Shown: positions 31,261 through 31,575 of the stretch, piece by piece
Layout: every line of letters starts with the position of its first letter
Numbering within the stretch: the stretch's first letter is position 1
Origin: Aggregatimonas sp.
GTDB lineage: Bacteria > Bacteroidota > Bacteroidia > Flavobacteriales > Flavobacteriaceae
Direction: 5' to 3'
Assembly: GCA_965238025.1 (NCBI GenBank)
Contig: OZ250162.1
Span: 969,288-1,033,287 of the forward strand
Length of the DNA: 64,000 bases
Position numbers and translations under genes: made by a program
Notes under the pieces: model-generated
The model's database searches: none
Told to the model about the DNA's origin: nothing
The model's input: the letters and a program-made list of their open reading frames with translations, nothing else

Positions 31261-31501
31261 TAAAATATTTTCAAACCAAGAATAGGTTTGTTGGAAGTTC
31301 CCACAACAACAAGGAGTGTTGTGGGAGAATCTCAAAAGTTCATTGAAACAATTTCTACTTGGGTAGAAACTAAAATATCAAGCTGGTCTTGTTGGGCGTT
31401 TCTGTAAAGCACTATTGTATGAAGTTTTGCCGAGAGGTATTAAGTCTTCATATACAACTTGACTTGAAGGTTTTGATTGTTAGCCAAAAAACAATCACCA
31501 C

Positions 31502-31573
31502 TCTGTGAGTCATGGGTTCGAATCCCATCGGTCCCAAATTGGGACTGTAGTTCAGTTAGGTTAGAACAACAGA
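31502..31573 (+). ncRNA. circularly permuted tRNA-like module (YrlA-type topology); may be part of a longer RNA from about 31425
   Basis: order: anticodon-stem 3' strand TCTGT, GAGTC, T arm, loop-closed acceptor CGGTCCCA-AAT-TGGGACTG, D arm, ACAGA. Confidence 0.7.
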
Positions 31574-31575
31574 AG

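Follow-up and report, generated by a model that had tools for sequence, protein, structure and literature searches.

A candidate Band-7-associated RNA with tandem permuted tRNA mimics upstream of a slipin gene in Aggregatimonas sp.

A stretch of 64,000 nucleotides (nt) of the genome of Aggregatimonas sp. (GCA_965238025.1, contig OZ250162.1, positions 969,288-1,033,287 of the forward strand; hereafter the window, to which all coordinates refer) contains a permuted tRNA-like module, module 1, which is best explained as the first unit of a composite non-coding RNA of ~575 nt, reaching from about 31378/31390 to 31952. This mimic RNA consists, in order, of a conserved leader, module 1, module 2 (tRNA-Ile2-like, with an intact CAU loop) and a 3′ rod. 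We hold it moderately probable that its two tandem permuted modules are non-chargeable tRNA mimics and that the RNA is the partner of the slipin (SPFH/Band-7) protein encoded downstream, in an RNA-repair system centred on RtcB. A preliminary description, made from the sequence, had taken the module for a YrlA-like Y RNA; it had missed both the far greater length of the RNA to which the module belongs and the slipin/Band-7 gene at 32032 as its constant neighbour.

Structure and conservation of module 1

In module 1 the T arm, a sealed acceptor and the D arm follow one another and are closed by the anticodon stem, without an anticodon loop (Table 1). All strings named in the preliminary description are present, and its complete permuted tRNA fold at 31502-31573 was confirmed by RNAfold and by covariation; the YrlA topology that it had recognised (T arm, acceptor stem-loop, D arm, closing stem) is supported by the fold and by an Rfam YrlA match. 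For 31495-31575, both the minimum free energy (MFE) structure and the centroid reproduce the permuted cloverleaf exactly (-23.3 kcal/mol, z = -2.2), although the predicted folding energy of the module taken alone is modest evidence. Module 1 was called neither by ARAGORN, which reported no gene at 31500-31670, nor by the Rfam tRNA model RF00005, and the missing tRNA halves were not found in its flanks.

Homologous DNA was found in three of the 15 other genomes of the genus, with 75-81% identity, and a genus-wide DNA search added none beyond these first three. The fuller set was obtained by scanning a species-representative genome collection with the 22-base core of the leader, which yielded 31 loci in Aquimarina, Maribacter, Spongiimicrobium, Croceitalea, Cellulophaga, Urechidicola and other Flavobacteriaceae (at least six genera). 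Thirty-one copies of module 1 were aligned with plain MAFFT (alignment A3), and a covariance model, R1, was built on the module.

We regard the comparative evidence as decisive for the predicted structure of module 1. Pairing is kept in 95.2% of the cells of A3, against 79.0 ± 1.0% in shuffles and 41-54% with slid partners. Double-sided changes occur in 15 of the 21 pairs, compensatory cells number 122 (40 in shuffles), and the covariation score of 0.534, compared with 0.213, was reached in none of 500 shuffles. All four helices covary, including the acceptor-like stem, with double changes at 7/7 pairs, and the closing stem, which is paired in 100% of cells and in which one pair swaps between G-C (18) and A-U (12). 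Nucleotides U8, A14, G19, A21, G53, T54, T55, C56, A58 and C61 are invariant across the copies, position 18 is G in every aligned case (29/31), and at the 15-48 Levitt pair 27 sequences have G-C and two mutually related ones A-U. The anticodon loop is missing in all 31 homologues. This conservation confirms module 1 as a real tRNA look-alike, predicted to be competent for the L shape with a conserved D/T elbow.

R1 scores 82.2 bits at module 1, and the next best match in the genome scores 37 bits; the weaker matches in this genome are junctions of neighbouring array tRNAs. Since junctions of tandem identical tRNA genes elsewhere also score with R1 (45-65 bits, match length 90-135 nt), a match without slipin was not counted as a member of the family.

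Table 1 Elements of the mimic RNA and of its genomic surroundings
Feature	Position in window	Strand	Basis or remark
Permuted tRNA-like module 1	31502-31573	+	Fold, covariation, invariant tertiary nucleotides, R1 82.2 bits
Module 1, anticodon-stem 3′ strand TCTGT	31502-31506	+	String located
Module 1, 5-nt variable loop GAGTC	31507-31511	+	String located
Module 1, T arm ATGGG-TTCGAAT-CCCAT, canonical TTCGAAT loop	31512-31528	+	String located
Module 1, 8-bp acceptor-like stem: CGGTCCCA, closing loop AAT, TGGGACTG	31529-31536, 31537-31539, 31540-31547	+	String located
Module 1, TA (U8-A9)	31548-31549	+	String located
Module 1, D arm GTTC-AGTTAGGTTA-GAAC, with GG dinucleotide	31550-31567	+	String located
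Module 1, A (A26)	31568	+	String located
Module 1, anticodon-stem 5′ strand ACAGA, pairs back to TCTGT	31569-31573	+	String located
Conserved leader, ~120 nt	31378-31501	+	Stretch best conserved in sequence across 32 loci
Leader helix P0, possibly long-range	31378-31387 with 31457-31467	+	RNAalifold, 32 sequences; one-sided pair-keeping changes only
Leader hairpin P1	31416-31424 with 31446-31454	+	RNAalifold, 32 sequences
P1 inner stem TGCC-GAGA-GGTA, holding GCCGAGAG	31428-31439	+	Inner pair covaries
Leader hairpin P2	31475-31482 with 31491-31498	+	Leader structure
Permuted tRNA-like module 2	31574-31658	+	Partial YrlA and tRNA matches, four-genome alignment
Module 2, variable loop AGGAC, then T arm	31581-31597 (T arm)	+
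Module 2, acceptor 3′ strand AAGAGGCC, then A-CC and U run		+
Module 2, acceptor 5′ strand GGCCCTT	31616-31622	+
Module 2, D arm	31625-31640	+
Module 2, complete anticodon arm CTACA-CTCATAA-TGTAG (CAU)	31642-31658	+
Linker with two small conserved hairpins, AATCA...TGATT and AAGCC...GGCTT	31659-31715	+	Alignments
3′ rod-like domain, long-range closing helix AAAAGCCGUAGUUAUA with UAUAACUCCGGUUUU	31716-31952	+	RNAalifold, MFE
Slipin/SPFH (Band-7) protein, 366 aa	32032-33132	+	Pfam Band_7 6.6e-28
Palindrome TACGCA-N7-TGCGTA	30127-30145	.	Nearest upstream candidate operator/promoter region for the non-coding RNA block
GOLLD-like large RNA, separate element	30780-31256	+	RF02032 127.7 bits, E 1e-34, gathering 150
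Array of 16 tRNAs, spacers 2-17 nt	28813-30105		ARAGORN
WYL-WCX regulator	17263-18282	-
Two RlaP nucleotidyltransferases	18991 and 19725
RtcB, first	21596
DUF4209 protein	In island
RtcB, second	25424
PrfH	26912		Above NCBIfam cut-off
TPR protein	In island

Linkage to slipin

In 28/28 leader loci with enough sequence, the slipin gene follows the leader motif on the same strand at a distance of 585-1100 nt. Among 401 genomes sampled from the family, all 25 R1 matches of at least 66 bits are followed by slipin 450-700 nt downstream. The linkage holds in the other direction as well: a protein search of 401 genomes sampled from the phylum gave 14 slipin homologues outside this genome, six in Flavobacteriaceae and eight across five other families of Bacteroidia, and each of the 14 has an R1 match 400-500 nt upstream on the same strand. 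ARAGORN found no tRNA in the RNA region of 13 of these loci; its one call (tRNA-Pro, L106) straddles two mimic modules. A larger slipin protein search returned only close Flavobacteriaceae relatives and reached no other phyla. Relatives of the protein are named 'slipin family protein' by NCBI and its nearest solved structures are stomatins; no obvious hydrophobic segment was seen by eye in the N-terminus of the translation. We consider slipin the constant neighbour of the RNA and its presumed protein partner.

Organisation of the mimic RNA

Every one of the 31 loci starts with the leader, followed by 2-4 units that always run T arm, acceptor hairpin, D arm. The shared architecture is the leader, then a unit of T arm, acceptor and D arm without an anticodon loop, then a unit with the same three elements and an anticodon arm. 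In the leader, the P1 inner pair covaries across 32 sequences (AU 15, UA 8, CG 5, GC 3). Over 121 parsed modules, the acceptor-like stem has 5-8 bp in 100 (full range 0-8) and the closing loop 3-6 nt in 72; most modules are therefore sealed at the acceptor end. The first module of L040 is closed at the variable-arm position and not at the anticodon stem. The middle permuted module of L034, L035, L048, L050, L052-L054 and L060 is derived from a class II (Leu-like) tRNA, with the D arm GGCGGAATTGGTAAACGC and a long variable arm.

Module 2, which we take by eye to resemble tRNA-Ile2/Met, is present in all loci parsed and is kept with compensatory changes in the acceptor and anticodon stems of the four-genome alignment. 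It gives a second partial YrlA match (31580-31640, 26.1 bits), and its 5′ part together with the CAU anticodon matches RF00005 (31616-31668, 28.5 bits). Its acceptor carries a bulge in the window. In module 2 and about a dozen homologues a 7-bp acceptor is followed by A-C-C/U and a U run. By eye, no pairing was seen in the ordinary tRNA register between modules (acceptor 5′ strand GGGACTG against AAGAGGCC of the next module). Directly after module 2, most loci (L039, L051, L059, L032 and others) have an extra hairpin of 5 bp with a 7-nt loop, ATGGA-CUNNNAA-UCCAU, which resembles an anticodon arm and whose 'anticodons' vary (GAA, CAA, AAA, GAU, CAU); it is missing in the window (~31659) and in L045, L046 and L047.

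The assignment of the 3′ rod domain is a structure prediction and weakly tested: RNAalifold on 11 close relatives predicts 78 pairs, eight of them with double changes. The MFE structure of 31378-31960 (583 nt) has z = -3.6 and keeps both tRNA-like modules. The rod ends in a U tract at 31947-31952, 80 nt 5′ of the slipin ATG, which probably marks the 3′ end of a stable RNA or belongs to an attenuator. In the stretch separating the RNA from slipin, no canonical intrinsic terminator was found. Maribacter-like loci have a conserved hairpin, GTCCGTCA...GGCGGAC (~31990-32025), directly 5′ of the slipin start codon; it may be a translational control element.

The anticodon loops of the later modules retain the canonical shape (C32 in 47/59, U33 in 56/59, A37 in 45/59, A38 in 52/59). 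On a near-invariant CTACA/TGTAG stem, the arms of modules 2 and 3 in 68 loci carry the loops CUUUUAA (19), CUCAUAA (15) and CUGUUAA (5), so that positions 34-35 switch (anticodons UUU, CAU and GUU) while U36-A37-A38, the setting in which tRNAs for ANN codons carry t6A37, does not change. The anticodon differs even between close relatives. Identity along the RNA is mosaic: the window and L045 agree in 94% of the leader, 66% of module 1, 99% of module 2 and 84% of the slipin DNA; module 1 is 86% identical to that of L047, and both modules are about 65% identical to those of L038. These values suggest that the modules are exchangeable cassettes and, with the anticodon switching, would favour a role related to conflict. 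Module 1 is the most widely conserved unit yet has no anticodon loop, which counts against a pure decoy.

Transcription

No RNA-seq of this strain was found, and three runs of this organism (X1, X2, X4), which are DNA or of unclear kind, provided no evidence of expression. The expression data are contigs from relatives with 85-96% identity in four runs, of which three are labelled RNA-seq (two of them metatranscriptomic) and X24 is of uncertain kind. The X26 contig (431 nt) covers 31391 to 31804, that of X27 (1727 nt) starts at 31393 and runs past 32094 into slipin, and that of X25 starts at 31398; all three cross both acceptor loops and both modules with the loops uncut. A transcript thus spans both halves of module 1 in relatives, where the preliminary description had considered that none might; its 5′ end lies near 31390, and transcription also continues into the gene that follows. 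Coverage of the mimic region in X24 exceeds that of the sequence beyond 31760 by a factor of 5-25, contig depth being a weak measure. No contig covers 31217-31357.

The sigma-70 promoter scan is uninformative in this phylum. The palindrome at 30127-30145 recurs at equivalent sites in about 30 loci, 83 to ~1270 nt 5′ of the leader, with other non-coding RNAs (a 200-nt tRNA-shaped RNA, GOLLD) inserted in between. A longer transcript from this operator ~1250 nt upstream, that is, a single regulated promoter followed by processing, is possible.

Relation to known RNAs

At gathering thresholds the tRNAs of the array were the sole Rfam matches in the scan, the partial YrlA and GOLLD matches needing a relaxed one, and no family of Rfam 15 reaches its threshold at the mimic RNA. 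The Rfam YrlA model RF02553 does match 31501-31575 (model positions 20-89 of 114, 34.3 bits, E 4e-5), which covers only the tRNA-like core, but the score falls short of the gathering threshold of 69. The likeness to YrlA lies in the identical topology, the conserved tRNA tertiary nucleotides and the association with rtcB. The mimic RNA differs in having no Ro60 gene, no conserved GNCGAAN0-1G motif, no long terminal stem and half the Rfam threshold score, in its tandem modules, the later ones with a complete anticodon arm, and in its length of ~575 nt against ~110 nt.

The preliminary description was right that the window has no TROVE gene, and the same holds for the whole genome (4.04 Mb, 99.7% complete), where the search found none at E ≤ 0.001. 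TROVE was also absent from 30/30 other carrier genomes, the controls Deinococcus and Bacteroides thetaiotaomicron being positive in the same search. The string GCCGAGAG (31429-31436) is indeed one base off GNCGAAN0-1G, as had been noted, but only 2 of 32 leaders match the motif, and the string forms the 5′ strand and the GAGA (GNRA-type) loop of the covarying P1 hairpin. No long terminal Ro-binding stem was found: the 5-bp closing stem leads into the leader on one side and directly into module 2 on the other. Y RNAs are defined by Ro60 binding; because TROVE is absent from this genome and all 30 carriers, the mimic RNA is not counted among them, and the identity first given to it was abandoned. 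By the criterion of Chen et al. (2014, PMC4201824), a YrlA RNA has a same-strand Ro60/TROVE gene no more than about 4 kb away; the mimic RNA has none at this distance. In Mycobacterium smegmatis YrlA is cut by RNase P and given a CCA end (Chen et al. 2014); it shares the 7-bp acceptor-like stem with module 2 and about a dozen homologues, whereas in module 1 of the window a 3-4-nt loop seals the acceptor.

Of the known kinds of RNA, the nearest is the Band-7-associated tRNA-like RNA (b7a-tRNA), a class predicted in 2016 and apparently never tested, to which we assign the mimic RNA. The abstract of Burroughs and Aravind from that year reportedly puts forward SPFH/Band-7 modules together with 'a novel tRNA-like molecule' as cofactors with a potential scaffolding role. 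As relayed in a passage of Wang et al. (2018, bioRxiv 10.1101/312249), these authors predicted b7a-tRNA beside RtcB and a Band-7 protein; Wang et al. add that YrlA occasionally adjoins Band-7 and that b7a-tRNA was unvalidated as of 2018. No later literature using the name was found. The mimic RNA likewise lies next to a Band-7/SPFH gene, with RtcB in the neighbourhood (21596, 25424) and no Ro60, and would serve a scaffold protein of RNA repair as its RNA cofactor. The description passed on by Wang et al. (2018) is that b7a-tRNA 'strongly resembles an authentic tRNA'; the mimic RNA has all arms and tertiary nucleotides in permuted order, and differs in its 2-4 tandem permuted modules inside a 575-nt RNA with leader and rod. 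As far as we have read, this tandem, permuted, large-RNA form seems not to have been described.

Among other candidates, an ordinary tRNA was rejected (no ARAGORN gene at 31500-31670 and just 28.5 bits with RF00005 for the 5′ part of module 2), as were tmRNA and permuted tmRNA (RF04321: 13.4 and 13.9 bits against a gathering threshold of 47; no ARAGORN tmRNA) and a natural permuted intron-exon (group I) arrangement, for which no intron model matched. BLAST against a phage collection gave nothing useful, only a 38-nt tRNA-Met match. The tRNAs linked to GOLLD and to tRNA arrays (Weinberg et al. 2009; Kretsch et al. 2024 preprint; Behra et al. 2019) are comparable in that the mimic RNA lies directly downstream of a GOLLD-like RNA and an array; it differs from them in occurring without GOLLD in many loci and in being tied to slipin.

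Bacterial RtcB repair systems are widespread, and little has been established about their natural substrates and cofactors. For RNA cofactors there are only two proposals, Y RNA with Ro60, which has been studied, and the tRNA-like RNA with Band-7 of the 2016 prediction. The present locus gives the latter class a structure backed by covariation and a covariance model that finds the RNA across Bacteroidia, and adds evidence of transcription in relatives and cultivable hosts (Maribacter, Aquimarina, Cellulophaga and relatives). The locus shows that the YrlA type of permuted tRNA fold is not confined to Ro60 systems; it is used in tandem, with swappable anticodon arms, beside a different scaffold protein, and the role of a tRNA mimic in RNA repair becomes a testable question. 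The family, missing from Rfam 15, is straightforward to add.

Proposed role and alternative explanations

In the role that we propose, the RNA would be made from the same strand as slipin and could be co-transcribed with it. Each module would fold into a tRNA-like L shape whose D/T elbow is intact and whose acceptor end is sealed, and because of these two features would be recognised by tRNA-binding enzymes yet excluded from translation. As in the case of Y RNA and Ro60, the RNA would bind to the SPFH oligomer, and the particle would tether or present repair factors that recognise tRNA (RtcB, RlaP); alternatively or in addition, it might compete with real tRNAs for tRNA-cutting toxins. More speculatively, and with a low probability in our estimate, the slipin oligomer and the 575-nt RNA may form a cage- or ring-like ribonucleoprotein, a counterpart of Ro-Y RNA and vault particles, in which the cassettes set which toxins are intercepted or which damaged tRNAs reach RtcB; anticodon switches and mosaic modules would then record an arms race against anticodon nucleases.

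Several points weigh against the proposed role. Both the binding of the RNA to slipin and the part in repair are what we infer from the locus. The modules with a 7-bp acceptor may be cut by RNase P and CCA-tailed like M. smegmatis YrlA, which would complicate the picture of sealed ends. The transcripts are assembled contigs of relatives and neither derive from this strain nor have mapped ends, and the 5′ end could be a processing site. The comparison with b7a-tRNA goes through a relayed description, and the difference from a permuted multi-module RNA may be smaller than it looks.

Compatible with slipin partnership in repair, and a minority possibility in its own right, is that the mimics serve as decoys, competitive inhibitors or sensors for anticodon nucleases or other tRNA-targeting toxins. 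The loop shape retained on one stem while positions 34-35 switch, and the cassette exchange suggested by the mosaic identities, speak for it, and Hughes et al. (2020) proposed that YrlA's tRNA-like domain may competitively inhibit an anticodon nuclease; the lack of an anticodon loop in the most widely conserved module speaks against it, and the three recurrent anticodons fit the target set of no single known toxin. Rather unlikely, in our view, is a mainly cis-acting role as 5′ leader of the slipin mRNA, in which the RNA would be an attenuator or processing signal (for example for RNase P or tRNA-binding factors) with the rod deciding read-through. It would account for the invariable position directly upstream of slipin on the same strand, for the contig of one relative that runs from leader to slipin, and for the rod U tract 80 nt from the ATG and the conserved hairpin just 5′ of it. 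However, 650 nt with 2-4 complete tRNA mimics far exceed the needs of attenuation, the 5-25-fold greater depth of the mimic region in X24 is that expected of a stable separate RNA, and the nearest relatives, YrlA and b7a-tRNA, are thought to act in trans.

The remaining explanations concern what kind of RNA this is. That it is a true Ro60-binding Y RNA, with the Ro60 gene elsewhere or too divergent, is very improbable: the YrlA topology, the partial YrlA match and an rtcB context like that of Salmonella rsr-yrlBA-rtcBA are outweighed by the absence of TROVE from this genome and 30/30 carriers, 34.3 instead of 69 bits, a Ro motif missing in 30 of 32 homologues, with a covarying hairpin at its site, and the want of a long terminal stem. 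Similarly little credence attaches to a genuine permuted tRNA gene, opened at the acceptor and circularised or ligated, for example by RtcB. Permuted tRNA genes probably arise by tandem duplication and loss of the outer halves, and those of Cyanidioschyzon merolae are said, in work of Soma et al. from 2007, to mature to working tRNAs by way of a circular intermediate. The order of 3′ half before 5′ half is common to both cases, two RtcB are nearby, and module 2 has all parts including A-CC and a U run. In contrast with the algal genes, however, module 1 is without an anticodon loop (in 31/31 homologues), module 2 is broken at 43/44, and the acceptors vary in length, are mostly capped by loops of 3-6 nt and in module 2 bulged; the anticodon also changes between close relatives, and the contigs span uncut loops. 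Least credible of all is functionless debris, that is, a tandem pair of decayed tRNA genes bordering the tRNA array, the outcome that the preliminary description had named as contrary to its own. The array of 16 tRNAs, with genes 2-17 nt apart, is 1.4 kb away, and tandem tRNA junctions are a source of false YrlA matches (Chen et al. 2014) and score with R1 too. Covariation and synteny nevertheless refute this reading: compensatory changes occur in all four helices, and acceptor strands from two different genes would have no reason to covary, as they and the closing stem do here. The element is moreover conserved across six families of Bacteroidia at a fixed place 5′ of slipin, it is transcribed in relatives, and its flanks are free of the missing halves.

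Genomic neighbourhood

The island of RNA-repair genes upstream of the tRNA array is listed in Table 1. In relatives with enough sequence, rtcB2-prfH-TPR also lies upstream of the RNA, the TPR gene ending that operon. The window and three related genomes share the order tRNA array, GOLLD-like RNA, leader, two permuted modules; the arrays at the equivalent place in these three genomes have 3-16 tRNAs of different content. The GOLLD-like RNA was also found at 10027-10501 in L029, 9925-10379 in L030 and 9272-9749 in L031, with 117-138 bits in all (E 1e-30 to 1e-36); its linker holds a T-arm-like element (~30848-30912, R1 25 bits). The link to GOLLD and the tRNA array is looser than that to slipin, and some loci have the TPR gene as close as 500-1000 nt upstream of the RNA. 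That the mimic RNA is part of GOLLD was rejected, the GOLLD match ending at 31256 and many loci lacking room for GOLLD.

We also identified a tRNA-shaped RNA of ~200 nt at 30181-30384, ending in ...CCAGTTCGAATCTGGTAAGAGGTA, which in the window is located 5′ of GOLLD. It occurs directly upstream of the leader in L032, L033, L035, L041 and others, at a distance of ~25 nt in the Aquimarina loci, and seems to belong to the same operon of non-coding RNAs.

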